Position numbers and translations under genes: made by a program. The notes under the pieces were generated by a model that had not been told where the DNA came from, searched no databases, and saw only the letters and a list, made by a program, of their open reading frames with translations. A DNA stretch of 64,000 nucleotides from Thermoanaerobaculia bacterium (GTDB taxonomy: Bacteria; Acidobacteriota; Thermoanaerobaculia; Multivoradales; Multivoraceae), in NCBI GenBank assembly GCA_965232105.1, contig OZ246956.1, forward strand, positions 20,101-84,100, written 5' to 3'. Shown here one piece after another: positions 4,019-40,057 of the stretch. How positions within the stretch are numbered: the first letter of the stretch is position 1; each line of letters begins with the position of its first letter.

Positions 4019-6214
4019 CTAGGACTCCCCGGCGCCCGCGAGGTCGAGCAGGAAGGCGTAAACCAGGGCCGTCTCGCGGTAGCGGTCGTAGCGGCCGGAG
4101 GCGCCCCCGTGGCCGGCGCCCATGTTCGTCTCGAGGAGCAGGAGGTTGTCGTCCGTCTTGTTGGCCCGCAGCCGCGCCACCCACTTCGCCGGCTCCCAGT
4201 ACTGAACCTGCGAGTCGTGCAGGCCGGTGGTCACGAGCAGGTGGGGATAGTCCCTCGCCTCGACGTTGTCGTAGGGCGAATAGGAGAGCATGTAGTCGTA
4301 GTACTCGCGCTCTCTGGGATCCCCCCACTCGTCCCACTCGAACGTGGTCAGCGGAATGCTCGCGTCGAGCATCGTCGTGACGACGTCAACGAAGGGCACC
4401 CGCGCCACGACGCCGTCCCATAGGTCGGGACGCATCGTGAACACCGCGCCGACCAGCAGACCGCCGGCGCTGCCGCCCATCGCGTAAATCCGGTCCGGGT
4501 CCGCGTAGCCCTCGGCCGCGAGATGCTCGGCCGCGGCGATGAAGTCCGTGAACGTGTTCTTCTTGTGGAGCAGCTTGCCGTTCTCGTACCAGGAGCGGCC
4601 CATCTCCTCGCCGCCGCGGATGTGGGCGATCGCGTAGACGAAGCCGCGGTCGATCAGGCTCAGAAGCGGCGAGCTGAACGACGCGTCCATGCTGGCGCCG
4701 TAGGAACCGTAGCCGTAGAGCAACAGCGGGCTGCCACCCTCTTCCGGCCGCAGATCGGGCCGGTAGACGAGCGATACGGGCACCTGCGTACCGTCTCCGG
4801 CCGTCGCCCAAAGCCGTTCGCTCCGGTAGTTCGCGGAGTCGAAACCGCCGAGCACCTGGTCCTGTTTGCGCAGGGTCTTCTCGCGCGTCGCCGGGTCGTA
4901 ATCGAACACCGACCGCGGCGTGGTCAGCGACTGGTAGACGTAGCGGAGGGTGCCGGACGACGGATCCGGGTTGACGCCGAGACCGGCCGAGTAGGTCGGT
5001 TCGCCGAAATCGAGGTCATGGCCCGTGACGGACCCGTCCCCGGCGCCGCCTCCGGCCCTCGGCTCGATGCGGAGCTGCTCGAGACCATCGCGCCTCTCCG
5101 CCAGCACCAGGAGACGATCGAACAGCTCGAAACCCGCGAGCAGCACGTCGTCGCGGTGCGGGAGTTCCTCGCGCCACGCGGCGCGACCAGTGTCGCCTTC
5201 GGCGGTCGACATGAGCCGGAAGTTCGGCGCGCGATCGTTCGTGCGCACCCAGAAGCGGTCACCCAAGTGATCGACGCTGTACTCGTGGCGTTCGCCCCGC
5301 GGCTCGAAGACGGCGAAGTCGCCGTCCGGATCGTCCGCCCGCAGGATGCGCACCTCCGTGCGCAGAGTGTGACTCGAGGTGGCCAGCAGGTACTTCCGTG
5401 ACTGGGTCCGCCCCAGGAACACGCTGAAGGTCTCGTCCGGCTCCTCGTAGACCAGTTCGTCGGGGGCCGTCGAGCCCAGGCGGTGGCGGTACACCTGGTA
5501 TGCGCGCAGCGTGTCCGGATCCTGGCGGACGTAGAACAGGGTCGCGCTGTCGGCGGCCCAGACGAGATTCGCCGTCACGTCCGGGATCTCGTCCGCGAGA
5601 ATCTCGCCGGTCGAAAGATCCTTGAACCGAACGGTGTAGAAGCGGCGTCCCACGTCGTCGACGCCGTACGCCAGGATCCGGTGATCCGGGCTAACGGACG
5701 GACGGACCGCCGTGTACTCCTTGCCTTCGGCGATCTCGTTCACGTCGATCAGTACTTCTTCGGCCTCGGGAGCCTGATCGCCGCCGAAGACGTCGCCGTC
5801 GATTGGCCGGCGGCCGTGGATCGGGTACTGCTTCCCCTCCTCGTAGCGCGTGTAGTACCAGTAGTCGCCGTCGCGGTAGGGAACGGATGAGTCGTCCTCG
5901 ACGACCCTGCTGCGGATCTCCGCGAACACGCTCTCCCGGAGCGGCTCGGTGTGCGCCAGCGCGGCGTCGACGTACGCGTTCTCCGCCTCGAGATAGGCGA
6001 TCACCTCCGGGTTCTCGCGTTCCCGGAGCCAGTAGTACTCGTCGACCCGGACGTCGCCGTGGGTCTCGAGTTCGTGGGGACGCGCCTCGGCCCGCGGCGG
6101 GTCGCCCGGGGCCGCCGCGGGGGCGGCGCAGGAGGTCACCGCGAGGGCCGCCAGGAGAAGGACTCCGGCAGCGGGGATTCCGGTTCGGAACGCTCTCGTT
6201 CGTAGCTGTCGCAT
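4019..6214 (-). CDS. ptrB: Oligopeptidase B / prolyl oligopeptidase family S9A serine protease, lipoprotein
   Basis: Start moved to MRQLRTRAF...LLLAALAVTSC (lipobox) at 6212-6214. N-terminal DEYYWLRERENPEVIAYLEAENAY is typical of protease II. The C-terminal GGSAGGLL serine motif and ...GAGHGG... histidine region fit S9A. Confidence 0.9.
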   Translation of the reverse strand: MRQLRTRAFRTGIPAAGVLLLAALAVTSCAAPAAAPGDPPRAEARPHELETHGDVRVDEYYWLRERENPEVIAYLEAENAYVDAALAHTEPLRESVFAEIRSRVVEDDSSVPYRDGDYWYYTRYEEGKQYPIHGRRPIDGDVFGGDQAPEAEEVLIDVNEIAEGKEYTAVRPSVSPDHRILAYGVDDVGRRFYTVRFKDLSTGEILADEIPDVTANLVWAADSATLFYVRQDPDTLRAYQVYRHRLGSTAPDELVYEEPDETFSVFLGRTQSRKYLLATSSHTLRTEVRILRADDPDGDFAVFEPRGERHEYSVDHLGDRFWVRTNDRAPNFRLMSTAEGDTGRAAWREELPHRDDVLLAGFELFDRLLVLAERRDGLEQLRIEPRAGGGAGDGSVTGHDLDFGEPTYSAGLGVNPDPSSGTLRYVYQSLTTPRSVFDYDPATREKTLRKQDQVLGGFDSANYRSERLWATAGDGTQVPVSLVYRPDLRPEEGGSPLLLYGYGSYGASMDASFSSPLLSLIDRGFVYAIAHIRGGEEMGRSWYENGKLLHKKNTFTDFIAAAEHLAAEGYADPDRIYAMGGSAGGLLVGAVFTMRPDLWDGVVARVPFVDVVTTMLDASIPLTTFEWDEWGDPREREYYDYMLSYSPYDNVEARDYPHLLVTTGLHDSQVQYWEPAKWVARLRANKTDDNLLLLETNMGAGHGGASGRYDRYRETALVYAFLLDLAGAGES

Positions 6215-7948: not shown

Positions 7949-9591
7949 AGAAGTCCCCGTTCCTGCTCGCCCTGCTGGCCACGCTGGCCCTGACATCGGC
8001 CTGCGGCACTCCGGCCGACGCTCCCGAAGGCGAGGCATCCGCGCAGGAACCGGCAGCGCAGGCCGTCCCCGAAGGCGCGCCCCGACTCGTCCTCCTGCTC
8101 GCCGTCGATCAGATGCGCGCCGACTACCTGGAGCGCTTCGCCCCGCTGCTCACGGGAGGCCTTGAGAGGCTACTCCGCGAGGGCGTCGTCTTCACCGACG
8201 CACACCACTTCCACGCCGCCACCGAGACCGCCCCCGGCCACGCCACGCTGGCGACGGGCGTGTTTCCCAGCCGGCACGGGATCATCGGCAACGGCTGGTT
8301 CGACCGGGAGACCGGCGACGACGCGTACTGCTGCGGCGACCCCGAGCACGGCGTGTCGCCGCGCAACATGCTGGCGCCGGCCATCGGCGACCTGATGAAG
8401 GCCGCCTGGCCGCGGTCCAAGGTGTTCTCCGCCAGCGGCAAGGACCGGGCGGCGATCCTGATGGGCGGGCACCACGCAGACGGCGCCTGGTGGTACAGCC
8501 GTCCGACCGGCGGCTGGGTCACATCGACCTGGTACGGCGACCGGGATTCGGGCCCCGCGTGGCTCGACGACTTCAACGCGGAGAGCCGTCTCGACGTGCT
8601 CTTCGGCGCCGCCTGGGAGCCGCTGATGCCGCTCGAGCACACCTCGGCGTACGACATCGAGCCGCTCCAGCGTGGTCTGTCGGTCGACACATTCCCCCAC
8701 GCGCTGGGCGGCTACACGGTGGAACGGTCGGCGTTCTACGCCTCCATCTACAGGTCGCCCTTTCTGGACGGCCACCTCGGTGATCTGGCCGAGACCCTGA
8801 TCGAGGCCCAGGACCTGGGCGCCGATGAGGTCCCCGACCTGCTGGCGCTCAGCTTCTCCGCCCTCGACACAGTCGGCCACGGCTTCGGTCCGAACGCGCC
8901 GGAGACCCTGGACACCATCCTGCGGCTCGACCGGACGATCGGCGAACTGCTCGACTTCGTCGACGAGCGGATCGGCATGGAGAACGTGGTCGTTGCGCTC
9001 TCCGCTGATCACGGTGTCGGCCGCGTGCCGGAACTCGTCGTGCGCGACGGCGGCGAAGGAGGCCGCTTCGGCGCCGAGCAGACCCTCTGCCTGCAACAGC
9101 TCCAGGCGCGGCTCGCGGAGCGGTTCGGCGACGGCGAATGGCTCGGCGACACCTTCTATCTCGACGAAGAGGAGATCGCGGCAGCCGGCGCCGACCGGAC
9201 GGAGATCGAGGCCGAGATCATCGACGTGATGGGAAGCTGTCCGCTGTTCCACCAGGTGCTGCGACCGGCTGACCTCGACCCCTCCGATCCTCTGCACGAG
9301 CTTTACCTGAACAGCCGATATCCCGGCCGCAGCCCGGACCTGATCGCGGTGCCGGAGCCGAACGTGCTGCCGGTGTCCGCCGCTGTCGTCACCGCGAGCC
9401 ACGGCTCCCCCTACCGCTACGACACCCACATTCCGCTCATCATCCGGCAGCAGGATGGCGCCGGCCGTGTCGTCGAGGAACGTGCGAACACGATCGACCT
9501 GGCGCCCAGCCTGGCCGCCATCCTGGGCCTCCCCGTTGACAGCATCGCCGGCTTCGAGGGGTTTGACGGCGTCGACCGGCTGGCCGAATGA
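7945..9591 (+). CDS. Alkaline-phosphatase-superfamily phosphodiesterase/nucleotide pyrophosphatase, lipoprotein
   Basis: Start reassigned to ATG 7945 (MKKSPFLLALLATLALTSACG, lipobox), an ATGA overlap with the phyH stop. ...LLLAVDQMRADYL..., ...TAPGHATLATGVFPSRHGI..., ...SALDTVGHGFGP..., ...SADHG... are type I phosphodiesterase/AlkP motifs. Confidence 0.8.
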   Translation: MKKSPFLLALLATLALTSACGTPADAPEGEASAQEPAAQAVPEGAPRLVLLLAVDQMRADYLERFAPLLTGGLERLLREGVVFTDAHHFHAATETAPGHATLATGVFPSRHGIIGNGWFDRETGDDAYCCGDPEHGVSPRNMLAPAIGDLMKAAWPRSKVFSASGKDRAAILMGGHHADGAWWYSRPTGGWVTSTWYGDRDSGPAWLDDFNAESRLDVLFGAAWEPLMPLEHTSAYDIEPLQRGLSVDTFPHALGGYTVERSAFYASIYRSPFLDGHLGDLAETLIEAQDLGADEVPDLLALSFSALDTVGHGFGPNAPETLDTILRLDRTIGELLDFVDERIGMENVVVALSADHGVGRVPELVVRDGGEGGRFGAEQTLCLQQLQARLAERFGDGEWLGDTFYLDEEEIAAAGADRTEIEAEIIDVMGSCPLFHQVLRPADLDPSDPLHELYLNSRYPGRSPDLIAVPEPNVLPVSAAVVTASHGSPYRYDTHIPLIIRQQDGAGRVVEERANTIDLAPSLAAILGLPVDSIAGFEGFDGVDRLAE

Positions 9592-10661
9592 GGACGAACT
9601 CCATGCTCCAGACCTCCGCAACCGCAACGACAGACCGACCCAGCGTCCGCGGAATCGCCGTCGCGGCCACCCTCTGCCTGACCGCGGCCTTCCTCTCGGC
9701 CTGCCAGGCGGAAGCGCAGACCTACGCCGAGAAACTCGGCTTCCCCGCCGGCGCCCGCGCCGTCATCCTCCATGTGGACGACGCCGGGATGTCGCACGAT
9801 TCGAACGTCGGCGCCTTCCGCTCGATCCTCGACGGCGTCGCGAACTCGATGAGCGTGATGATGCCCTGCCCGTGGGTGCCCGAGCTGGTGCGGGGCCTGG
9901 AGGAGAACCCGGGCATCGACGCCGGCCTCCACCTGACCCTGACCGCCGAGTGGGACGACTACCGCTGGGGCCCCCTCGTTGGCCGCGAGGCGGCGCCCGG
10001 CCTGGTCGACCCGGAAGGCGCCCTGTGGTCAAGCGTCGCCGAGGTCGTCGCGAACGCGACGCCCGACGAGGTGGAGGCCGAGGTGCGCGAGCAGATCAAC
10101 CGCGCCCGGACGATGGGCTTCGAACCGACCCATCTCGATTCCCACATGGGCACCCTGTTCGCCACGATGGACTTCCTGGAGCGCTACATCGCGGTCGGCC
10201 TCGACGAGGGCCTTCCCCTCATGTTCCCGGGCGGCCACAACACGATCCTCGAAGCGCAGTACGAAGCCCAGGGACGGGACACGCCACCCGGCCTCGGCCG
10301 CGCGACCGAACTCGGCCAGCGAATCTGGGACGGCGGCCTGCCGGTTCTCGACGACCTCCACAACCTGAGCTACGGCTGGGTCCCCGAAAGCGGCGCCGAC
10401 GCCACGGACGAGGAGCTGACGGAGTACAAGGTCGAGCGCTACATCCAGGGCCTGCGTGATCTCCGCCCCGGCGTCACGATGGTCATCATGCACTCCACCG
10501 ACCCGAGCGAGAACTTCAAGTACATCTCCACCTCGGGCCCCAGCCGCAAGGGCGACATGCTGGCCATGCTCGACCCACGCCTCAAGCAGGTGATCGAGGA
10601 GGAAGGCCTGGTCCTGACCACCTTCCGTGAGCTCAAGGAAAGGCGGGACCGCGTCAACTAG
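9588..10661 (+). CDS. ChbG/YdjC-family carbohydrate deacetylase-like protein, lipoprotein
   Basis: ATGA overlap with the upstream stop. Signal ...ATLCLTAAFLSAC. ...VILHVDDAGMSHDSNVG...SMSVMMPCPW... and ...THLDSHMG... resemble the YdjC/ChbG/HpnK family. Confidence 0.7.
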   Translation: MRTNSMLQTSATATTDRPSVRGIAVAATLCLTAAFLSACQAEAQTYAEKLGFPAGARAVILHVDDAGMSHDSNVGAFRSILDGVANSMSVMMPCPWVPELVRGLEENPGIDAGLHLTLTAEWDDYRWGPLVGREAAPGLVDPEGALWSSVAEVVANATPDEVEAEVREQINRARTMGFEPTHLDSHMGTLFATMDFLERYIAVGLDEGLPLMFPGGHNTILEAQYEAQGRDTPPGLGRATELGQRIWDGGLPVLDDLHNLSYGWVPESGADATDEELTEYKVERYIQGLRDLRPGVTMVIMHSTDPSENFKYISTSGPSRKGDMLAMLDPRLKQVIEEEGLVLTTFRELKERRDRVN

Positions 10662-30467: not shown

Positions 30468-30878
30468 ATGTCAACCGAAACCGTCGAAGCCAGGCCCATA
30501 GCGGCGACACTCCGGGAGGAACTCGAAACCGAGCCGGACGTCATCGCCGCATACCTGTACGGTTCCGTCGCCCGCGGCACCCACCGCCGTGACAGCGATG
30601 TCGACCTGGCCCTGCTCCTCCAAGAGGATCCGCCAGACACCCTCGAGGGCCTCCGACTCGGCCTCGCCGCCCGGCTCCAGAACCAACTCAAACGATCGGT
30701 CCAAGTCGTCATCCTCAACCGTGCGTCATGCGATCTGGCGCACCGGGTGCGTCGCGATGGTCAACTTCTGATCGAGCGGGACCATCGGCGGCGCGTGGCC
30801 TGGGAAGTCAAGTCCCGCAACGAGTACTTCGACATGGAGCCGATCCGCCGGCTCTACCGCCACGGCTCCACCTCATGA
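30468..30878 (+). CDS. mntA: MntA-type nucleotidyltransferase antitoxin (type VII TA)
   Basis: ...VIAAYLYGSVARGTHRRDSDVDLALLL... is the GSxxRG...DxD minimal nucleotidyltransferase motif. ATGA overlap with the downstream DUF86 gene. Confidence 0.85.
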   Translation: MSTETVEARPIAATLREELETEPDVIAAYLYGSVARGTHRRDSDVDLALLLQEDPPDTLEGLRLGLAARLQNQLKRSVQVVILNRASCDLAHRVRRDGQLLIERDHRRRVAWEVKSRNEYFDMEPIRRLYRHGSTS

Positions 30879-31291
30879 CCGACGCCGAACTGGTCGCAAA
30901 GAAGCTCGCCGAGATCGAGACCTACCTGGCCGACCTGCACAGGCTTGGTCGACCCGACCTTCTGGAGACCGATCTCAAGGAGCAGCGGTTCATCCTGATG
31001 ACGCTGCAACTAGCGATCCAGGCGGTACTCGATGTCGCCTCGCACATCGTCTCGGACGACAAGCTCGGGGAACCCGAACACAATCGGGACCTGTTCGTCA
31101 TCCTGAACTCCGCGGACTGGCTCACCGACAATCTAGCTCAACGCCTGCAGCACATGGTCGGCTTCCGGAACATCCTCGTTCACGAGTACGCCCGGACAAA
31201 TCTGGCGATCGTTCGGGACGTGCTGGAGAATCGACTTGAGGATCTCACCGAGTTCCGCGATGCCGTTCACCGACGGCTGACCGTCGCGTAG
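30875..31291 (+). CDS. hepT: HepT (DUF86) HEPN-family RNase toxin (type VII TA)
   Basis: ATG 30875 overlaps the mntA stop. ...MVGFRNILVHEYARTNLAIV... contains the Rx4HxY HEPN/DUF86 catalytic motif. Confidence 0.9.
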   Translation: MTDAELVAKKLAEIETYLADLHRLGRPDLLETDLKEQRFILMTLQLAIQAVLDVASHIVSDDKLGEPEHNRDLFVILNSADWLTDNLAQRLQHMVGFRNILVHEYARTNLAIVRDVLENRLEDLTEFRDAVHRRLTVA

Positions 31292-31385
31292 CGAGCTACT
31301 CGGGGCCAAGGCACGAGACCCGGCTCACCCGGCTGGTAACGGGCGCAACCACGCTCGTTCACGCCCGCCAGCACAAGGAGAAGCG

Positions 31386-32681
31386 ATGAGCATCGAGTCC
31401 TCAGCACCGGCTTCACTCGAACCGAATGCCTCAACGACGATCGAGGAGCGCACAGTAGTCGCCATCAATGGCGAGCCCGCCGAGATGCCAGTGCGGGCAG
31501 TGCTCCAACTGGCGCGCAGTCCTCGACTCGTCCTGGAGTACGAGACCTTTCCGCCCAACCTGCTCAGCAAGACCGACAAAGGCGCGACGCTTCTTCTTGA
31601 CAACGGAGGCAAGGTAGAAGTGCTCAAGCCGCACCCGTTGCCCGGCCCCGCCGGTCTTCGCGGCGTCCTGCACCCGAGGAAGCAGCCCTTTACGGTCTTC
31701 GATCGCGGGCACCCGCTTCAGGCCGTCTCGTTCAGCGCGGTCAATTTCCCCAACCTCTACGGCAGCCACGACGAGTTCGTCGAAAGAGGCGGGCAGTGCA
31801 TTCGCTGCGGAAACGCCGAACTTGAGACGCCGTCTTTCCGAACAACCCTGACCGCCAACCATGATCTCAGCCGAAACGAGCAACTGCTGGCTGCAAGCGG
31901 CGGCTACGTCGTCACGCACCGCGGACACCTTGTTCGCCGGGACAGCGGTGTTTTCGCTCGCGCGGACGCCGAGCACGTCCTTCTCGCCTTGCGGCGTTTT
32001 CTCTCGTTTGCTCGCGGGACTTCGTGCGCGCTGGTTCAGGTGGAGGGGAGGACCGCGAACGGCGAATGCTCCTGGCGGTGGTGGGGCTCCCACGGAGTCG
32101 CCGAATGGAATCCGACACCATCCTGGTCGCGAAGCGTGTCCGACGGCATGGATGCCCTCGCCGGCGCCTTCCCGGGATTCTGGAGACAGTTCAAGGTCGA
32201 CGAGGCAGACTCAGACAGTTCGGTGGAGTTCGCGATCGAGTGGTACGTCAGCAGCAACGAGACGAACGCGGTAGCGCCCGGCCTCGTTCTCTCCCAGGCG
32301 GCACTTGAGCGCGTGACGCACAAAAACGTCGGTCCAAAGCGCAAGGACGGCAAGAAACAGGAGAAGACGGGCGTGTGGATCGGACGTGCGCTCGGCGAGG
32401 CGCACATCAGCGAGACCATCCCGATGGAGTTGAGCCACTTGGTCGCGGCAGGCCAAGAACACTGCTGGTCGAGCGGCCCTCACGCGATCGTTGCTGCTCG
32501 GAACGACCTAGTTCACCCTCACATGGTGAGCCCGGCCTCCACCGAGGCCCTGATTGAGGCGCGACGACTCAGTCAGTGGTACGTCGAACTCCTGCTGATG
32601 AAGCTCTTCGGCTACACCGGCTCGTACCGGAATCGAATCAACAACGAGTGGGAACCGGTCCCTTGGGTCGTCCCCACATAG
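31386..32681 (+). CDS. Uncharacterised 431-aa protein: beta-rich N-terminal region plus helical C-terminal region with Rx4H (HEPN-like; possibly ApeA-like)
   Basis: Strong RBS (aaggaga) 6 nt upstream of the ATG. The C-terminal ...HAIVAARNDLVHPHM... gives R-N-D-L-V-H, which is Rx4H. The architecture recalls ApeA (ApeA_NTD1 + HEPN_Apea), but I could not verify this. The confidence value refers to the functional call; the CDS itself is solid. Confidence 0.55.
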   Translation: MSIESSAPASLEPNASTTIEERTVVAINGEPAEMPVRAVLQLARSPRLVLEYETFPPNLLSKTDKGATLLLDNGGKVEVLKPHPLPGPAGLRGVLHPRKQPFTVFDRGHPLQAVSFSAVNFPNLYGSHDEFVERGGQCIRCGNAELETPSFRTTLTANHDLSRNEQLLAASGGYVVTHRGHLVRRDSGVFARADAEHVLLALRRFLSFARGTSCALVQVEGRTANGECSWRWWGSHGVAEWNPTPSWSRSVSDGMDALAGAFPGFWRQFKVDEADSDSSVEFAIEWYVSSNETNAVAPGLVLSQAALERVTHKNVGPKRKDGKKQEKTGVWIGRALGEAHISETIPMELSHLVAAGQEHCWSSGPHAIVAARNDLVHPHMVSPASTEALIEARRLSQWYVELLLMKLFGYTGSYRNRINNEWEPVPWVVPT

Positions 32682-32908: not shown

Positions 32909-34870
32909 CTATCCCGTCAATAGCTCCGGCACGTTCTCCCGGATCTCTTTCGCCTCTTCGTGTGCCGGGAATCGCCGTACTGCCTCCCTCCAAGTGGCCT
33001 TGGCCTCAGCGACTCTTCCAGAGTTCCAGTAGACACCTCCCAGATTGAACCAGGCCCGATCGTAGTCCTCCTCCAATTGCACTGCTCGGCGATACGCATC
33101 GACTGCCCCTTCGACATCGCCCACTCCCGCCCTAGCGACTCCAACTTGAAACCAGCTCAACGCGTCCGGCTGGTGCTCCTGTGCCTGGGCCAGCAGAACC
33201 GGCAAGGCCTCCGCGTACCTCCCCAGGAAGTTCAGAGCAGTTCCGAAGCAGTAGCCGTATTCGTCCGCAGACACGTCGAACGCCCGCCGGTAGCACTCCT
33301 CCGCCTCGACCCAATCCCCATCGTCCTGAGCCCAATGGCCACACCGATCCCAAAGGAACGCTGGATTGGTCGCGCCACGCGCCACTAGCTGTTCGGTGCT
33401 TCGCTTGACCTTCTCGTAGTTGTAGGCCGTCCGTTCGCCGTCGGCCTGAAGCAGGAACACACAGAGCAGCCTCTCACGCTCTGCCACCACCGTTCTCCCG
33501 AGCGGCACACCCGCGCAGTCGTCCCAGAATCGAAGCGCGTGACGGGCCGCTTCGACGGACGCTCTGCCGTAGGTCGCCACCAACCTCGCACACCAAGGCA
33601 ACACCCACTCCGACTCCCGAGCACGCCCCTGTAACGCCCGGATCTCCCGAAACGCTTCCCCGGTCCTGCCCAACTCGAACAGAACCTCAGCACGCCAGCC
33701 CTGCACCGACGTCAGAGCCAGGGCCGAGCCTCCTGAACACACGATCGCGTCGAGGTGCTCCAAGGCTCGCTCAAGCTCACTCACGCCTCCAGGGCTCCGC
33801 CTGTAGCTGAGGGCGAGGGCGAAGTGCGCCTCAGCGAGGTCAGCGTCGAACTTGAGAGCCCTCCGGTAGAGAACGTGTGCGCCCTCGACGTCCCCCAGCT
33901 TCGCCTTCGCCGCACCGAAGTTCTTGCAACACATCGCTGCTAGACCACTACCGTCAGACCCCTCCAACAGCTCCAGAGCTGCCTCGTACGTTTCCACCGC
34001 ACGCCGGTAGTCACCCAAGGCAAGCCAGCCATTGCCGACGCAGTAGAGCATGGATCCCGGCGAGAACACTCCGCCATTGGCGGCGTCCTGCAGGACCTCG
34101 ATGCCCTTGGCAACCCGGGCTCGGTCGACCTCCTGGCCATTGACTCCCAGGTTGATCTCCGCCATGTAGGCGTACGAGAACTTCCCGATGGAAGTACCCA
34201 GTACAGCGTGAAACTTGTCGAAATTGCAACTTATGGTTCGGTCCTGCCCTCGGCGATAGAGTTCCGCCAACAACGCCTCGGCACTCGCGACGTCGGCGGG
34301 TACAGGCAAGTCCACGCCCATTTCTTCGGGCAAGCCAGCCAAGCGGTTCGGAGGCAGAGTGGCGTATAGATGCCGACGGTCTCGCGCGCCCCTCGCTGAG
34401 GCGATCGCGTGCTCTTTCAGTCTCTTCTGAAATTCGAGGCTAAAGGCGTCTTTGAACCTCACAGTTACAGTCGATTGATCGCCCCAGGCTCCCGGGCAAT
34501 GCTCATACTCGCGCAACACGTCGTCGACTCTGCGAACCAGTAATCGCTCGGACGGAGCGTGATAGCACACGAACACGGAGGCCGGGTGCACCGTCAGGTA
34601 GTTGAGTGTCGTTCTTCTGACGGACCGACTCACGGCCCCGTCGGCGCTGGCGTCGCTCCGCGTCCCTTTGAGCTGTACGGCGACTCTGACATTCGTCATC
34701 TCGTGGCCGTCTCGCGCCTCGATCCAGAAGTCGACACCGTAGTCGGAGTCGTCGACAGACTGAACGACGAAGTGTTCGCCATCCGAGATCGCCGTCCTGA
34801 AGCGACTCTTGGACTCCTCGTCGAGCTCGCGGTTCTTGTCGTGCTTGGGAAGATCGTCCAAGTAAGACAC
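32909..34870 (-). CDS. DUF4365-like (restriction-endonuclease-fold) N-terminal domain fused to a long TPR array
   Basis: GTG start with ggtggag RBS. N-terminus ...SKSRFRTAISDGEHFVVQSVDDSDYGVDFWIEA...VRVAVQLKGT... fits the DUF4365 pattern (DyGiD ... vQvK) of PD-(D/E)xK-like nucleases. Residues ~230-650 are TPR-like (e.g. ...DYRRAVETYEAALEL..., ...AHFALALSY..., ...AVDAYRRAVQLEEDYDRAWFNLGGVY...). No Walker A motif seen. Confidence 0.68.
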   Translation of the reverse strand: MSYLDDLPKHDKNRELDEESKSRFRTAISDGEHFVVQSVDDSDYGVDFWIEARDGHEMTNVRVAVQLKGTRSDASADGAVSRSVRRTTLNYLTVHPASVFVCYHAPSERLLVRRVDDVLREYEHCPGAWGDQSTVTVRFKDAFSLEFQKRLKEHAIASARGARDRRHLYATLPPNRLAGLPEEMGVDLPVPADVASAEALLAELYRRGQDRTISCNFDKFHAVLGTSIGKFSYAYMAEINLGVNGQEVDRARVAKGIEVLQDAANGGVFSPGSMLYCVGNGWLALGDYRRAVETYEAALELLEGSDGSGLAAMCCKNFGAAKAKLGDVEGAHVLYRRALKFDADLAEAHFALALSYRRSPGGVSELERALEHLDAIVCSGGSALALTSVQGWRAEVLFELGRTGEAFREIRALQGRARESEWVLPWCARLVATYGRASVEAARHALRFWDDCAGVPLGRTVVAERERLLCVFLLQADGERTAYNYEKVKRSTEQLVARGATNPAFLWDRCGHWAQDDGDWVEAEECYRRAFDVSADEYGYCFGTALNFLGRYAEALPVLLAQAQEHQPDALSWFQVGVARAGVGDVEGAVDAYRRAVQLEEDYDRAWFNLGGVYWNSGRVAEAKATWREAVRRFPAHEEAKEIRENVPELLTG

Positions 34871-35021: not shown

Positions 35022-35835
35022 TCAAAGGTCGACCCGGCTCTCGGAATCCCCTGCCGACAGTGCGTTCATGTAGGCGAGAACGAGATCACCCGTTCGGTAG
35101 GACCCGAAGAGAGCCTCGTCCTGCCGCTGTGCGATCGGGAAAGTCCGAAGCACGTACTCCGCGTCTTGCCGGCACAAACCGTAGAGCAGGAAGTACAAAG
35201 CATCCAGCCTGGCTCGCAAGTGCCGGCGCTCCTCCTGGTCCCAGGAAAAGGGACGCGGGCCGCAGCCAAGGTCACGCGCAAGCGGCTCCATGTCGTGCGC
35301 CGCGTAGGTCAGGCGTAGGACGTGGTCGCGGACGATGTCCAGAGCGGTCCTGTCCCCGAACCGGCGCTTGTAGTCCCCAGCCAGAATCACCGGCAACTGC
35401 TCGACGATGAACCAGTTCAGATGCTGTCCCTGGACCTTCTGCCGGGCCACGAAGTCGAACACGAAGGAGTTGAAGTTGGCGGCAAGCAGCGACAATGCCT
35501 CCGCGGCCGCCGCAGCTGAGCGGGCACCATCGGGTGTAAGCAGGGGAAGCGTGTTGCCCACGGCGGAGCGAGGTACAAGAGAAGCGATCATGGTGCGAAC
35601 GTTCGTCGGCGCCGTGACGTCCTTGAAGGCGAGTGCCCAGTCGACACCCACTGGCCACTCCACCTTGTCAGCCGCAACCCAGAACTGCGGATCAGGCGAC
35701 CAAGCCGGATCAGCATGCTCCGCCAGCGTTGCCTCGCGCGGCTGCGCGGGGCGGTTCAGATTCTCCGGGTTCACGACCACGCTCGCCGCCCGGTGGTCGA
35801 ACGCCTGGACCATCTTGCCCTCGTACAGGAGGTAT
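35022..35835 (-). pseudogene. C-terminal fragment of a type IIG/IIL restriction-modification enzyme (Eco57I/MmeI/YeeA-like)
   Basis: ...YLLYEGKMVQAFDHRAASVV... matches the PLYEGKMIxQFDHR motif I associate with the C-terminal part of these fused methylase-endonucleases. It begins exactly at the IS boundary and has no start codon of its own. Confidence 0.68.
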
Positions 35836-37191
35836 TGCCGAAAGTTGTGGATCGGCGATTTGATCAGGCAGCGTTCCTGACCTGAGTTCCGTCGGTGAAT
35901 GGTACTCCTTCTCTGACCAGAGCAACGAGGTGCGGGGCGTTGACTCGTCGCCAGCGTTTCTGCGCCATGTCGAGCAGCTTGAAGGCCATCAGCAGGGCCT
36001 TGGTGCGTGACCCGGCGCCCTTGGTGACCCGCTGCCGCAGCTTGACGGTGGCAAACGTCGATTCGACTGCGTTGGTGGTGCGCAGGTGCTGCCAGTGCTC
36101 GGCCGGGAAGTCGAAGAAGCTGAGCAGGCAGTCCTGGTCCCTTTGCAGGGATTCGACCGCCTTGGGGTACTTGGCGCCGTAGTCCTCGGCGAAACTCTCG
36201 ATCTCCGCCTCGGCATCCTCGCGGCACTCCGCGTACATGATCTCGTGCAGAGCCCTCTTGGCCTTGGCCTGCAGCCGCTTCGGCAGCTTGTCCAGCACGT
36301 TCCTCAGCCGATGCACCCAGCATCTCTGCTCCCTGGTTTCGGGCCACACGTCGCGGACCGCCCGCCACAGGCCCAGGGCGCCGTCGCCGATGGCCAGGAC
36401 TGGCGCTCGCAGGCCGCGGCGCTTCAGGTCCCGCAGGACGCTCGCCCAGCTCTCCGCGCTCTCCCGGTAGCCGTCCTCCACCGCGATCAGCTCCTTGGTC
36501 CCGTCACGGCGCACGCCAAGCAGGACCAGCGTGCACAGGCGATCGTCCTCCAGACGGACCCGGAAATGCACGCCGTCCGCCCACACGTACACGTAGTCCT
36601 CGGCGCTCAGGTCTCGTTGCCGGAAGGACCGGTACTCCTTCTCCCACGACGAGGTCATCCGCGCGATGCTGGATGCAGACAGGCCCGAGGCCTTCTCCCC
36701 CAGCAAGGCGCCGAGCGCTTCCTTGAAGTCGCCTGTCGACAAACCCCGCAGGTACAACACCGGCAGGACCTCCTCGACCTTCGGCGAGCGGCGCATGTAC
36801 GGCGGCAGGATCGAGCTCGTGAAGCGATGATCAGGCCGCCGGTCGTCGACCCGGGGAGCCCTGACCTCCACCGTGCCGGCGCCCATCGTCACCTGCCGCG
36901 CGCGGGCCCGGCCGTTGCGCACCACCAGTGCACGGCCGTCCTCCCCGCGTTCCGCGCGGTGTCTCTCCACGTACTCGGAGACTTCCACCTCCAGGGCCTC
37001 CACCAGCATCCGGCGAGCGCCCTCGCGGAAAAGCTCGTCGAGAGGCACGACGGTGTTCCCCTCCGAGGCGGTTTCGACTATCTTGAGCATGGGCGGCGTG
37101 TCCTTTCTCCCGGCATCCGACCGGGCGTCTTGTTGAACACCCAGGAGGATACGCCGCCTGATCTGCATCACCGGATCCACAACTTCTGGCA
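35836..37191 (-). mobile_element. IS256-family insertion sequence (~1.36 kb) inside the restriction-modification gene
   Basis: Imperfect ~38-bp terminal inverted repeats: left gccgaaagttgtggatcggcgatttgatcaggcagcg (from 35837); right, as reverse complement from 37190, gccagaagttgtggatccggtgatgcagatcaggcggcg. A single transposase ORF fills the element. Boundaries are +/- a few bp. Confidence 0.85.
35864..37090 (-). CDS. IS256-family transposase
   Basis: 408 aa from MLKIVETASEGNTVVPLDELFREGARRMLVEALEVEVSEYVERH.... ...YVWADGVHFRVR..., ...AIGDGALGLW..., ...QRCWVHRLRNVLDKLP..., ...TTNAVESTFATVKLR... are hallmark IS256/mutator-type motifs. In the track it appears fused in-frame to the upstream gene fragment. 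Confidence 0.92.
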   Translation of the reverse strand: MLKIVETASEGNTVVPLDELFREGARRMLVEALEVEVSEYVERHRAERGEDGRALVVRNGRARARQVTMGAGTVEVRAPRVDDRRPDHRFTSSILPPYMRRSPKVEEVLPVLYLRGLSTGDFKEALGALLGEKASGLSASSIARMTSSWEKEYRSFRQRDLSAEDYVYVWADGVHFRVRLEDDRLCTLVLLGVRRDGTKELIAVEDGYRESAESWASVLRDLKRRGLRAPVLAIGDGALGLWRAVRDVWPETREQRCWVHRLRNVLDKLPKRLQAKAKRALHEIMYAECREDAEAEIESFAEDYGAKYPKAVESLQRDQDCLLSFFDFPAEHWQHLRTTNAVESTFATVKLRQRVTKGAGSRTKALLMAFKLLDMAQKRWRRVNAPHLVALVREGVPFTDGTQVRNAA

Positions 37192-38209
37192 GTAGCTCGA
37201 GTTCCATGAGGCGGTTGTAGTAGTTGCTCGCCGTGCTCGAGAACGTGTCTCGCTCGCGCCACCTCGTCGCAATGTCGTCGCGGACGCGCACGCGCAGGCC
37301 GTAGTCGTCGTATCGCGAGTCGTTCACGGGCAGCAGGCCACGGTCTTCGGCGTAAAGCACGAACAGCAGGCGATACAGGAAGATCAGGCCGGCATTCCGG
37401 ATCTCCTGCAGGTCGGCTTCCGGCGCCTGAGCGGCCAGGGCGTTCAGCAGCCGCGGGAACACATCGCCGAACACGACCTGGGAAAGGTCCTTGGCCGCAC
37501 TCTCCTCGTACCGCTTCCCCTCGGCGATCGCCAGGTCGACGAAGCTTGCTCTGGCACCCGTCCGCTGAACGAACGCATCCTGTCCAAAGAGAAGGAGGAA
37601 GCTCCTCAGGGCATCTTCGTCCCCACTCTCTAGGATCGCACCCAGGTCCACCTCGAAGTAGGCGCTCGCGCGCGGGCGAGCTTCGTGGTCGTAGAGCCTC
37701 CAGACGCGGCCGTTTGTCAGAAGGCCCCGGCTGATGCGTCCATCCGAGACGCTGTAGGCGGTAGCCAGATACCGGAGGATCTGGCCGTGCGGCGTGCCGA
37801 GCACGAACCGATCCGAACGATCCCGCGCATCCAGGGGCAAGCCGAACCGCTTACTCTCCTGGACCACAAGGGCATCCACATAGCGGTCGTCCGGGGCCGT
37901 CCGCTCGGCAGCGCGCCCTTTCGACTCGGAGTCCTCGAACAGCAGGTGGTCCGGGACATCCTCGCCACGCGCCGCTTCCTGCTGCGGCAGGTAGTCCGTC
38001 CATCCAAGCAACCGAAGAACCGGCCTGATCAGCTCCTCCTCGGTGACCGCCTCATTGGGGGCGCTGAAGCGACTGATGCTCGCGAAGCGCTCGGTCACGC
38101 TGGCCCGGAATCCCGTGAGCGCCTCCGGTGTCCGGAGGGACTCCCGCCACTCGGGGGTCTCCTGAATGCCCTCGGTGAGGAAGTAGTGGGTGAAGAGTTG
38201 GCCCGTCAA
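37192..38209 (-). pseudogene. N-terminal fragment (nuclease + helical connector) of the same type IIG restriction-modification enzyme
   Basis: ...QLFTHYFLTEGI..., a PD-ExK-like ...VPDHLLFED...ALVVQESKRFG..., and ...LIFLYRLLFVLYAEDRGLLP... are typical of MmeI/Eco57I/PglX-type N-termini. It is truncated at the IS end after ...NYYNRLMELE. The likely start is TTG ~38209; the track ORF extends to 38293. Confidence 0.68.
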
Positions 38210-38561: not shown

Positions 38562-40057
38562 ATGATTGACAAAGAAACCAGCATGAACGCCAAGGAGCGC
38601 ATGGGCGAGGAGATCGCCACGCTTGCGGCGCGCATCGACGCGGCGACCTACGAGTTGCTCGTCCTGATCCGCAAGTTCGATGAGGAGGAGGGCTGGAACT
38701 GCGGCTTTCTGAGTTGCGCGCACTGGCTCACCTGGCGCATCGGCCTGGCGCCCAACGCGGCCCGCGAGCGCGTGCGGGTCGCCCGGGCACTCGGCGAGCT
38801 ACCGGTGATGAGCGAGGCGATGAAGCGGGGCGAGCTCTCGTACTCGAAGGTCAGGGCGTTGACCCGCGTGCACGGCCCGACACGGAGAAGGAGCTGGTCG
38901 AACTCGGCCGAGCGGGAACAGCAGCCCACATCGAACGGGTCGTCAGGGCGTGGCGCAGAATCGACCGTTCAGTCGAGGCCGCGGAGGACGAACTACGCGA
39001 CGCGTCGAGCCATGTGACAACCCACGTAGACGAGAACGGCATGTTCGTCATCCGCGGTCGCCTGGCGCCCGAGGCGGGCGAAGTCGTGATGAAGGCGCTC
39101 AAGGCGGCGGGCGAGACGCTCTACGCGGAAACCCAGGATGACCGGCCGCCTGCCGGCAAGGTTCGAGCCGATGCGCTCGCCCTCGTAGCCGAAAGCGCGC
39201 TCACGGGCGGCCTCGCTCCGGGCTCAAGCGGCGACCGCTACCAGGTCGTGGTTCATGTGAGCGAGGAGGAATTGAGCGTGCCTGAGCAGTTGCCCGCCGT
39301 TGGGTGCACGTCGTGTGTTTCCGCGGAAACGCCCGCGGCACGCGTTTCCGCGGAAGCGCCACCGACGCACCCACAGGAGTATGTGGTCCCAACGGCTGAA
39401 GCCGAACACGTCTCCACGGAAGCGCCAGCCGGACGCCAACCGGCAAACGGACGACCTTCACCCCGCGGAGCCTGGCTCGGCGACTCCCAAGTCCCTGTTT
39501 CCGCGGAAACAACCCGGCGCATTGCCTGTGACGCCGGCAAGGTCCGGATCACTCACCGATCGGGCCAGATCCTGAGCGTCGGCCGCAAGAGGCGCACCAT
39601 TCCGCCGCCGATCCGGCGCGCTCTGGAGTTCCGCGACCAGGGTTGCCGCTTTCCCGGCTGTACTTCGAAGCACTGCGACGCCCACCACATCGTCCACTGG
39701 GCCGACGGCGGCGAAACGAAGCTCTCGAACCTGGTACTCCTCTGCCGGCGACACCACCGGCTGCTCCATGAAGGCGGCTTCAGCGTGCGGATGAGCGAGG
39801 CCGGCGCCGTACGGTTCTTCCATCGCCGGGGACGGCCCCTGGAACAGAGTCCGGCGCCTCCACCGGTCGGGCTCCACGCCGCCCGAAAGCTGGTCGAGCA
39901 CCTGGAGAACGCCGGCATCCTGATCACGGGCAAGGAGTCCATGCCGAGATGGGACGGCGAGCCGCTCGACCTGCCCTACGTCATGGAGTGCCTGTGGCGG
40001 CCGCCACCGCACCTGGAGGCAGTAGCCCGCGAACGAAACGCACCGCGCGCCGCGTAA
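38562..40057 (+). pseudogene. DUF222 / HNH endonuclease (13E12-repeat-type), interrupted by a -1 frameshift near 38875-38879
   Basis: Frame 1 (38562..) gives ...ARIDAATYELLVLIRKFDEEEGW...SYSKVRALTRV.... The family sequence continues in frame 2 (...PDTEKELVELGRAGTAAHIERVVRAW...VSAETTRRIACDA...GCRFPGCTSKHCDAHHIVHWADGGETKLSNLVLLCRRHHRLLHEGG). One extra base in the ggccc run would restore the frame. Confidence 0.8.

Follow-up and report, generated by a model that had tools for sequence, protein, structure and literature searches.

The window analysed here is a stretch of 64,000 nucleotides from contig OZ246956.1 of a Thermoanaerobaculia bacterium (assembly GCA_965232105.1, positions 20,101 to 84,100). 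Near its middle it carries a gene for a protein in which a DUF4365 nuclease-like domain is followed by a long helical repeat array, with no nucleoside triphosphatase (NTPase) domain; we refer to it as the DUF4365-TPR protein, after the tetratricopeptide repeats (TPRs) of the array. The open reading frame (ORF) is real, intact and under purifying selection. It begins with a GTG codon, and the start call is correct, since 39 full-length homologues begin in register with its first residues (M/V-S-Y-L-D-D-L-P-K). A search around the gene for a sigma-70-like promoter and an intrinsic terminator gave neither, a result that is uninformative for an Acidobacteriota-like genome. An AlphaFold2 model of the whole protein, made with 40 homologues as input, has a mean predicted local distance difference test score (pLDDT) of 87.4 and consists of an alpha/beta domain, which extends to residue ~140, and of helices only from 145 to 651, with about 30 helices and zero strands past residue 140. 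A regular-expression scan of the protein found no Walker A motif, and scans with Pfam, PADLOC and NCBIfam returned no NTPase family. The protein is thus devoid of an NTPase, and its 653 residues and all-helical fold after residue 145 leave no space for one.

The N-terminal domain matches DUF4365 (PF14280) at residues 20-142 with an E-value of 2e-12 and 47.8 bits, against a Pfam cut-off of 24.3, and almost every full-length homologue has a precomputed match to the same family. Modelled separately, residues 1-178 reached a pLDDT of 85 and a predicted template modelling score (pTM) of 0.82. When this domain model was submitted to Foldseek, the 12 best matches were DREN domains of SPARDA (9qcc, 9vx6, 9jt2, 9jsz and 9qbp), with E-values down to 6e-8 (9qcc) and TM-scores of 0.62-0.64 over ~155 columns; the weaker matches that follow are other PD-(D/E)xK nucleases, namely D212, the Hjc resolvases and I-Ssp6803I. 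Sequence searches of the PDB with the domain, whether with the one sequence or with a profile built from 22, returned nothing, and fold comparison alone gave matches. The catalytic motif reads D43-Y-G-V-D47, E51 and Q66-L-K68 in the window protein. Among 61 full-length homologues from different species, at 32-90% identity, residues D43, G45, D47, E51, N60, Q66 and K68 are invariant in all 61. The spacing of 19 residues from D47 to Q66 equals that from D41 to Q60 of NbaSPARDA, so that D47, Q66 and K68 correspond to D41, Q60 and K62 of that protein, in which collateral nuclease activity is lost in the D41A and Q60A mutants and reduced in K62A (PMC12205087). For TmuRE, a Q62A/K64A double mutant has been used as the inactive enzyme (PMC10810196). 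As modelled, the N-terminal domain has a PD-(D/E)xK fold, and its nearest structural counterpart is the DREN nuclease of SPARDA; by Pfam score, predicted fold and catalytic residues it is a member of the DUF4365/DREN family, with predicted nuclease activity.

Past this domain, a dozen TPR models from Pfam (TPR_1/2/8/11 and related ones) match residues ~272-640, with TPR_2 (82 bits), TPR_11 (71 bits) and TPR_1 (64 bits) scoring above gathering. Foldseek with the whole model retrieved only generic TPR superhelices (consensus TPR, OGT), which is uninformative on the specificity of a sensor. An earlier note on this DNA, made from the letters alone, had anticipated much of this architecture: the DyGvD...vQlK pattern of the DUF4365 family, the restriction-endonuclease fold and the lack of a Walker motif or NTPase between the domains all find confirmation in these analyses, and its TPR array is real according to both Pfam and the AlphaFold2 model, with a length of ~500 rather than ~400 residues.

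The helical module turned out to be shared with a second group of proteins bearing a different N-terminal domain. A profile of the family, compared with 1.84 billion cluster representatives, retrieved 526 proteins at E <= 1e-30. Besides full-length members of the family and fragments, the best 150 matches include about 20 proteins of ~600-636 residues whose alignment to the profile runs collinearly, without a break, from position ~170 to ~645 (E 1e-87 to 1e-51) and leaves the N-terminal 150 positions unmatched. All ten of these that were checked with Pfam carry an N-terminal DUF4062 domain (PF13271), nine above the gathering score and one (P0182) just below it; one of the ten also matches TIR_2. 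BLASTP of the window protein against the DUF4062-TPR proteins gave single high-scoring segment pairs of 407-549 residues (E 1e-76 to 1e-28), with identities of 26-34% for all but one, whereas generic multi-TPR proteins used as controls gave segment pairs mostly of <=140 residues and none better than E 5e-13. In the alignment the two families join the helical module to the N-terminal domain at the same point, a PP junction, and they have in common the motifs YMAExNLG, CWKNLG, DRxGH, GYCxG, QPDAxSWFQ, AWFNLGGxYWN and RFPxH. Judging from these alignments, the DUF4062-TPR proteins are a sister family with a homologous and collinear helical module of ~480 residues, in which the effector has been swapped. 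This sister family comprises about 60 clusters and is unnamed (examples are P0175, P0176, P0180, L083:8001-9872 and L086:8001-9866). At three loci (L083-L085) its gene lies on an integrated plasmid-like element with an integrase, ParA/ParG and Rep3, and is preceded there by a 226-residue ORF that, judging by its sequence, appears to have hydrophobic and possibly membrane-spanning stretches.

The DUF4062 domain, also called NIR, is a TIR-like NADase and a validated anti-phage effector, in use in Swarozyc, Evangelion, Avs2, Vulcan and Vesta (bioRxiv 10.64898/2026.05.01.722283, 10.64898/2026.09.04.749371, 10.64898/2026.06.25.731849). Neither Swarozyc nor Evangelion, two candidates for a named relative of the sister family, was equated with it; their C-terminal AUX is described as winged-helix or short, not TPR, and Swarozyc is composed of NIR and a winged-helix AUX (bioRxiv 10.64898/2026.05.01.722283). 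A single helical module that bears either a predicted nuclease or a predicted NADase is a signature of modular immune sensors.

How is the family distributed? A search of 5.8 billion proteins returned 283 matches to the DUF4365-TPR protein, and the best 120 of the 283 are essentially all full-length proteins of 645-656 residues, 47-90% identical, with DUF4365 and TPRs. Four homologues without PF14280 (P0066, P0075, P0113 and P0120) were examined as possible bearers of other effectors and rejected, being only N-terminally truncated. The homologues go under no other database names than 'tetratricopeptide repeat protein' or 'DUF4365 domain-containing protein', and neither this family nor its DUF4062-TPR sister was found to have been characterised in the literature, which was also searched with RefSeq accessions of homologues. 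A scan of 185,579 species, with one genome per species, found about 75 loci, about 10 of which are fragments or pseudogenes. Their hosts belong to Acidobacteriota, Latescibacterota, Rhodothermales, Gemmatimonadota, Nitrospirales, Planctomycetota, Desulfobacterota, Myxococcota, Spirochaetia and many Alpha- and Gammaproteobacteria, including Acinetobacter, Klebsiella, Yersinia, Serratia, Bradyrhizobium and Azospirillum. Among plasmids, 12 records have a match, 8 of them conjugative, and 11 copies are full-length; the family is also present in 3 of 5426 complete E. coli genomes. Homologues with RefSeq accessions include WP_251003718.1 from E. coli and WP_306589217.1 from a Klebsiella plasmid. The family is essentially not phage-borne, since 50,697 phage genomes yielded zero matches and the 2.9 million contigs of IMG/VR a single locus. 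The family is rare, horizontally spread and of a fixed length of ~650 residues.

The surroundings of the homologues are highly variable. An all-against-all BLAST of the ORFs at <=6 kb from the gene in 75 loci identified no partner gene conserved across the family. Immediate defence neighbours include Septu PtuB (3 loci), Gabija GajB (2 loci), type III Res (3 loci), a type IIG restriction-modification (R-M) enzyme, a type I HsdR and Olokun OloB, in addition to large NACHT/STAND-like and SIR2-like proteins, as judged by reading the sequences. Mobility genes are represented by integrases (4), resolvases (3), a TrwC relaxase, ParA, transposases and insertion sequence (IS) elements. The E. coli homologue (L087, NZ_CP061754.1 1181763-1207724) belongs to an island close to tRNA-Ile and ypjA that also contains a type I R-M system, a SIR2 and ATP-binding pair, a restriction endonuclease, and ankyrin-repeat and DUF6387 proteins; its RefSeq start lies 18 codons downstream of the start implied by the family alignment. 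The copy on a Klebsiella IncF plasmid is accompanied by DUF3800, an HNH and AAA pair and an AIPR protein, and that on a Leisingera plasmid is found among integrases, with WYL and SbcCD/SMC-like genes further off. The survey for homologues in defence islands that the earlier note had proposed thus finds variable neighbourhoods of defence genes and mobile elements, with some exceptions given below. As far as gene content can tell, this pattern is as expected for a stand-alone accessory defence gene.

One recurrent neighbour occurs in a part of the family. In 13 loci (L021 at 9345-9977, L023, L025, L027, L031, L033, L034, L036, L037, L038, L048, L056 and L069) a 210-residue ORF abuts the start codon of the DUF4365-TPR gene or overlaps it by a few bases. 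Its hosts are Alphaproteobacteria, a Gammaproteobacterium and an Acidobacterium, and the copies are 88-94% identical to one another, a sign of a two-gene cassette that has spread recently. Neither Pfam nor PADLOC has a match for the ORF, and its product is possibly a regulator or an immunity partner. Kinship with the 226-residue ORF upstream of the DUF4062-TPR gene was considered and rejected, the two being unrelated.

The window itself is syntenic with a Candidatus Multivorans sp. chromosome (L001, the closest relative; Acidobacteriota, Thermoanaerobaculia), the nucleotide sequences being 82-88% identical, which allows the local history to be followed (Table 1). In L001 an intact type IIG R-M enzyme of 1351 residues, which matches Eco57I/N6_Mtase and the PADLOC models REase_MTase_IIG/DrmMI and has an NPPW motif, is encoded 154 bp upstream of the orthologue on the same strand. 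The R-M gene of the window is a pseudogene, because two remnants alone survive, with an IS256 element between them. The 25-nt terminal inverted repeats of the element (35829-35853 and 37174-37198) abut both remnants exactly, and ~750 codons are gone, the NPPW methylase motif among them, so that the IS256 event must have been more than a simple insertion. The earlier note had an R-M gene directly upstream and co-directional with the DUF4365-TPR gene; strand and side are right, but what is there is a remnant disrupted by IS256, and the linkage is confined to Ca. Multivorans. The orthologous locus L002 (Ca. Multivorans thiocomprendens) retains a type IIG fragment, the intact gene adjoins the DUF4365-TPR gene in L001 only, and inspection of other loci revealed none; the remnant is a neighbour, outside the system. 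The ratio of nonsynonymous to synonymous substitution rates (dN/dS) of the window gene against the Ca. Multivorans orthologues is 0.26 and 0.17, alike in both domains, and such low values despite the destroyed adjacent R-M gene indicate that the DUF4365-TPR gene has been maintained.

Table 1. Features of the DUF4365-TPR locus, with positions counted from the first letter of the window
Feature	Position	Strand	Evidence
DUF4365-TPR coding sequence, 653 residues and stop codon	32909..34870	-	ORF list, translation; full-length homologues
All-helical C-terminal module, residues 146-653: helical stalk/linker and TPR-like solenoid	32912..34435	-	AlphaFold2, Pfam, Foldseek
DREN-like PD-(D/E)xK nuclease domain, residues ~10-145	34436..34843	-	Pfam PF14280, fold model, Foldseek
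Predicted catalytic core D43-Y-G-x-D47...E51...Q66-x-K68	34667..34744	-	Invariance in 61/61 homologues; NbaSPARDA spacing
Type IIG R-M C-terminal remnant (L001 residues 1089-1351)	35025..35828	-	tblastn with the 1351-residue L001 protein; weak PADLOC REase_MTase_IIG match
IS256-family element, 1370 bp	35829..37198	-	Transposase_mut E 2e-68 (Mutator family); terminal inverted repeats
Type IIG R-M N-terminal remnant (residues 1-337)	37199..38209	-	tblastn, 92.6% identical to L001
Convergent 431-residue ORF, neighbour	31386..32681	+	No Pfam, PADLOC or NCBIfam match
MNT (Polbeta nucleotidyltransferase)/HepT (HEPN) pair; HepT at 30728..31291	30468..31291		Pfam, NCBIfam

On the other side, the convergent neighbour is the 431-residue ORF and not, as the earlier note had it, a HEPN-like gene; HepT/HEPN and MNT lie beyond. 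The ORF is 84.6% identical to a 467-residue ORF in the same place in L001, and no counterpart was found beside the DUF4365-TPR gene in L002 or in any conserved neighbour cluster at the other loci. The MNT/HepT pair, a type VII toxin-antitoxin, is an insertion of ~870 bp relative to L001. Homology between the ORF and L001 begins at 31314, ahead of the first start codon (31386), so the insertion may have removed the 5' end of the ORF. In L002 the slot of this ORF is taken by a different defence system: the gene downstream of the orthologue (4252-5715, minus strand) matches Olokun OloB with E 6e-16, and ORFs of 1081 and 1308 residues come after it. The broken R-M gene of the window is flanked by a DUF222 and HNH endonuclease gene (38714-40057, plus strand), which is kept in L001 and, according to NCBIfam and PADLOC, weakly resembles IscB and DpdF in its HNH region alone. 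GC content falls to 62-64% across 30-36 kb of the window, compared with ~70% in the flanks, and this dip, together with the local gene decay, fits an acquired and decaying island. No tRNA gene was found between positions 20 and 48 kb in the window.

Several systems resemble the DUF4365-TPR protein in part. SPARDA, a pairing of a short prokaryotic Argonaute (pAgo) with a DREN-APAZ protein, has the same PF14280 effector as an N-terminal domain of ~145 residues, offers the best structural match and has the same D...QxK spacing. The DUF4365-TPR protein, however, has a TPR-like solenoid of ~500 residues in place of APAZ, and its sequence similarity to SPARDA is below the detection of a PDB search. 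PADLOC's Aga_REase model gives only a weak N-terminal match (residues 34-74) and no PNTD/APAZ region, and no Piwi or Argonaute family was found among the neighbours in the window or among the 25 most frequent families of 117 immediate neighbours of homologues. Since it has neither an APAZ domain nor an Argonaute gene, the protein is not SPARDA, and sensing based on a guide RNA cannot apply to it. The Avs/AVAST and other STAND proteins likewise combine interchangeable N-terminal effectors with a C-terminal sensor of TPR type, and the effectors used by Avs proteins include REase-type and DUF4062/NIR domains, the same pair as in the two families described here; the DUF4365-TPR protein lacks their central STAND P-loop NTPase and for that reason does not belong with them. 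Divona, from Vibrio integron cassettes, is a validated one-gene defence with a DUF4365 N-terminus (bioRxiv 10.1101/2024.07.02.601686), a likeness that goes through the Pfam family only, its C-terminal part being crr6 (PF08847) without TPRs. The DUF4062(NIR)-TPR sister has the same helical module and is likewise encoded by a single gene in a mobile context, with a product of 600-636 residues; it differs in having a TIR-like NADase domain in place of the nuclease, and its overall identity is 26-34%.

The overall layout, one polypeptide with an N-terminal enzymatic domain directly before an alpha-solenoid and no NTPase, is that of Vulcan (NIR and HEAT repeats) and DSR2 (SIR2 and an alpha-solenoid), which have an N-terminal toxic effector, C-terminal helical repeats and no STAND NTPase. 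Vulcan is activated by direct binding of lambdap79 (bioRxiv 10.64898/2026.09.04.749371), and DSR2 by direct binding of the phage tail tube protein (PMC11850899, PMC11263360). Their effectors, however, are NADases and their repeats are described as HEAT or alpha-solenoid; the likeness is one of layout class by description and not that of a homologous family. The statement of the earlier note that it was not aware of a characterised system with an effector joined to repeats and lacking the STAND ATPase is outdated, because DSR2, Vulcan and Swarozyc have been characterised.

What could be the function of such a protein? We favour the possibility, at a probability of about 0.6, that it is a stand-alone and horizontally mobile immune protein of the abortive-infection type, made of a DREN nuclease and a sensor/assembly module of ~500 residues. 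The sensor-effector reading already suggested by the earlier note is strengthened by the DREN fold, by the variable neighbourhoods of defence genes and mobile elements, and by the effector swap; immune function, trigger, activation dependent on oligomerisation and substrate are what we infer. In the uninfected cell the nuclease domain would be inactive, either monomeric or held apart. The helical module would bind a trigger, most likely a conserved protein of a phage or mobile element, and binding would drive or re-arrange oligomerisation, so that nuclease domains meet as DREN tetramers do in SPARDA filaments. We propose this step because the isolated DREN domain, a collateral DNase/RNase switched on by induced tetramerisation (PMC12205087), remains an inactive monomer unless filaments form and impose a tetrameric arrangement on it (PMC12205087, PMC10810196). 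Once assembled, the nuclease would degrade DNA, possibly RNA too, without specificity, which would stop replication of the invader and abort the infection.

A number of observations weigh against this interpretation. No PADLOC model matches the protein beyond weak matches at the level of domains, the family is known from sequences and models alone, and the geometry between the domains is uncertain in the whole-protein model (pTM 0.65). The association with defence islands is qualitative, and some loci have housekeeping neighbours only (prephenate dehydratase, glycosyltransferase, PQQ dehydrogenase). The translationally coupled 210-residue partner in the 13-locus subclade means that the protein may not always act alone. 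Finally, the helical module is highly conserved, and its last 190 residues are the best conserved part of the protein, with a mean identity to the window protein of 49% over the 61 homologues, compared with 45% for the nuclease. Sensors that diversify rapidly do not behave in this way, and a conserved partner in the cell could be the cause instead; the sequence comparison suggests that the ligand or interface of these 190 residues is conserved and not evolving fast.

Alternatively, the protein might work for mobile elements, as a nuclease borne by plasmids or integrative and conjugative elements for competition between elements, exclusion or addiction, with the TPRs recognizing a protein of a rival or a host factor. 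The 11 full-length copies on plasmids (12 records, 8 conjugative), the locus near a TrwC relaxase gene, another beside a ParA gene, and the integrases, resolvases and IS elements that flank many copies all speak for such a role, as does the action of SPARDA, the other DREN system, on plasmids as well as phages (bioRxiv 10.1101/2025.04.08.647717). Many copies, however, are chromosomal and sit in classic defence islands, and no immunity or antitoxin gene is conserved next to them; mechanistically the idea overlaps with the defence model and differs from it only in beneficiary and target. We consider it unlikely. More improbable still is that the protein is a component of a multi-gene system with the type IIG R-M enzyme, the 431-residue ORF or a small partner such as the 210-residue ORF. 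The intact type IIG gene 154 bp upstream on the same strand in L001, the fragment in L002, the 431-residue ORF kept in L001 and the 210-residue ORF at the start codon in 13 loci would agree with it. The type IIG linkage, however, is limited to one genus and attributable to shared ancestry, the window gene remains under purifying selection with its R-M neighbour destroyed by IS256, the 431- and 210-residue ORFs are missing at most loci, and the immediate neighbours differ almost everywhere.

We find it hard to credit a housekeeping or DNA repair function, in which a structure-specific nuclease with a fold like that of Hjc or a homing endonuclease would be tethered by its TPRs to a cellular complex. 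Holliday-junction resolvases and I-Ssp6803I do appear among the Foldseek matches, although more weakly than DREN; the TPR module is strongly conserved, and some of the neighbourhoods are metabolic. Against these stand the sparse occurrence of the family (about 75 of 185,579 species genomes, 3 of 5426 E. coli genomes), its location on plasmids and in islands and the decay of about 10 loci to fragments or pseudogenes; a swap of the effector for an NAD-destroying domain is incompatible with such a role.

The preferred reading of the DUF4365-TPR protein as an immune protein can be extended to its sister. Together the DUF4365-TPR and DUF4062-TPR proteins might represent an unnamed class of NTPase-independent immune receptors, in which a solenoid of ~480 residues senses a conserved ligand of the invader, or one induced by it, and assembles interchangeable effectors; we regard this wider proposal as tentative, at slightly less than even odds. 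If it is true, the DREN nuclease would degrade nucleic acids and the NIR NADase would deplete NAD+ within one receptor class, and activation of DREN by induced oligomerisation would operate outside Argonaute systems.

The DUF4365-TPR protein is a credible and tractable candidate, and not a categorically new mechanism. Trigger-activated collateral DREN nucleases have already been applied in diagnostics. Confirmation of the proposed function would add a single-gene family to the known defences, with a DREN nuclease used without Argonaute, and would provide a natural pair of proteins in which one sensor module is joined to either a nuclease or an NADase, ideal for the study of activation by repeat sensors without an NTPase switch. 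With homologues on conjugative plasmids of Klebsiella and Enterobacter and in defence islands of E. coli, the family may also influence the outcomes of phage therapy and the ecology of plasmids.

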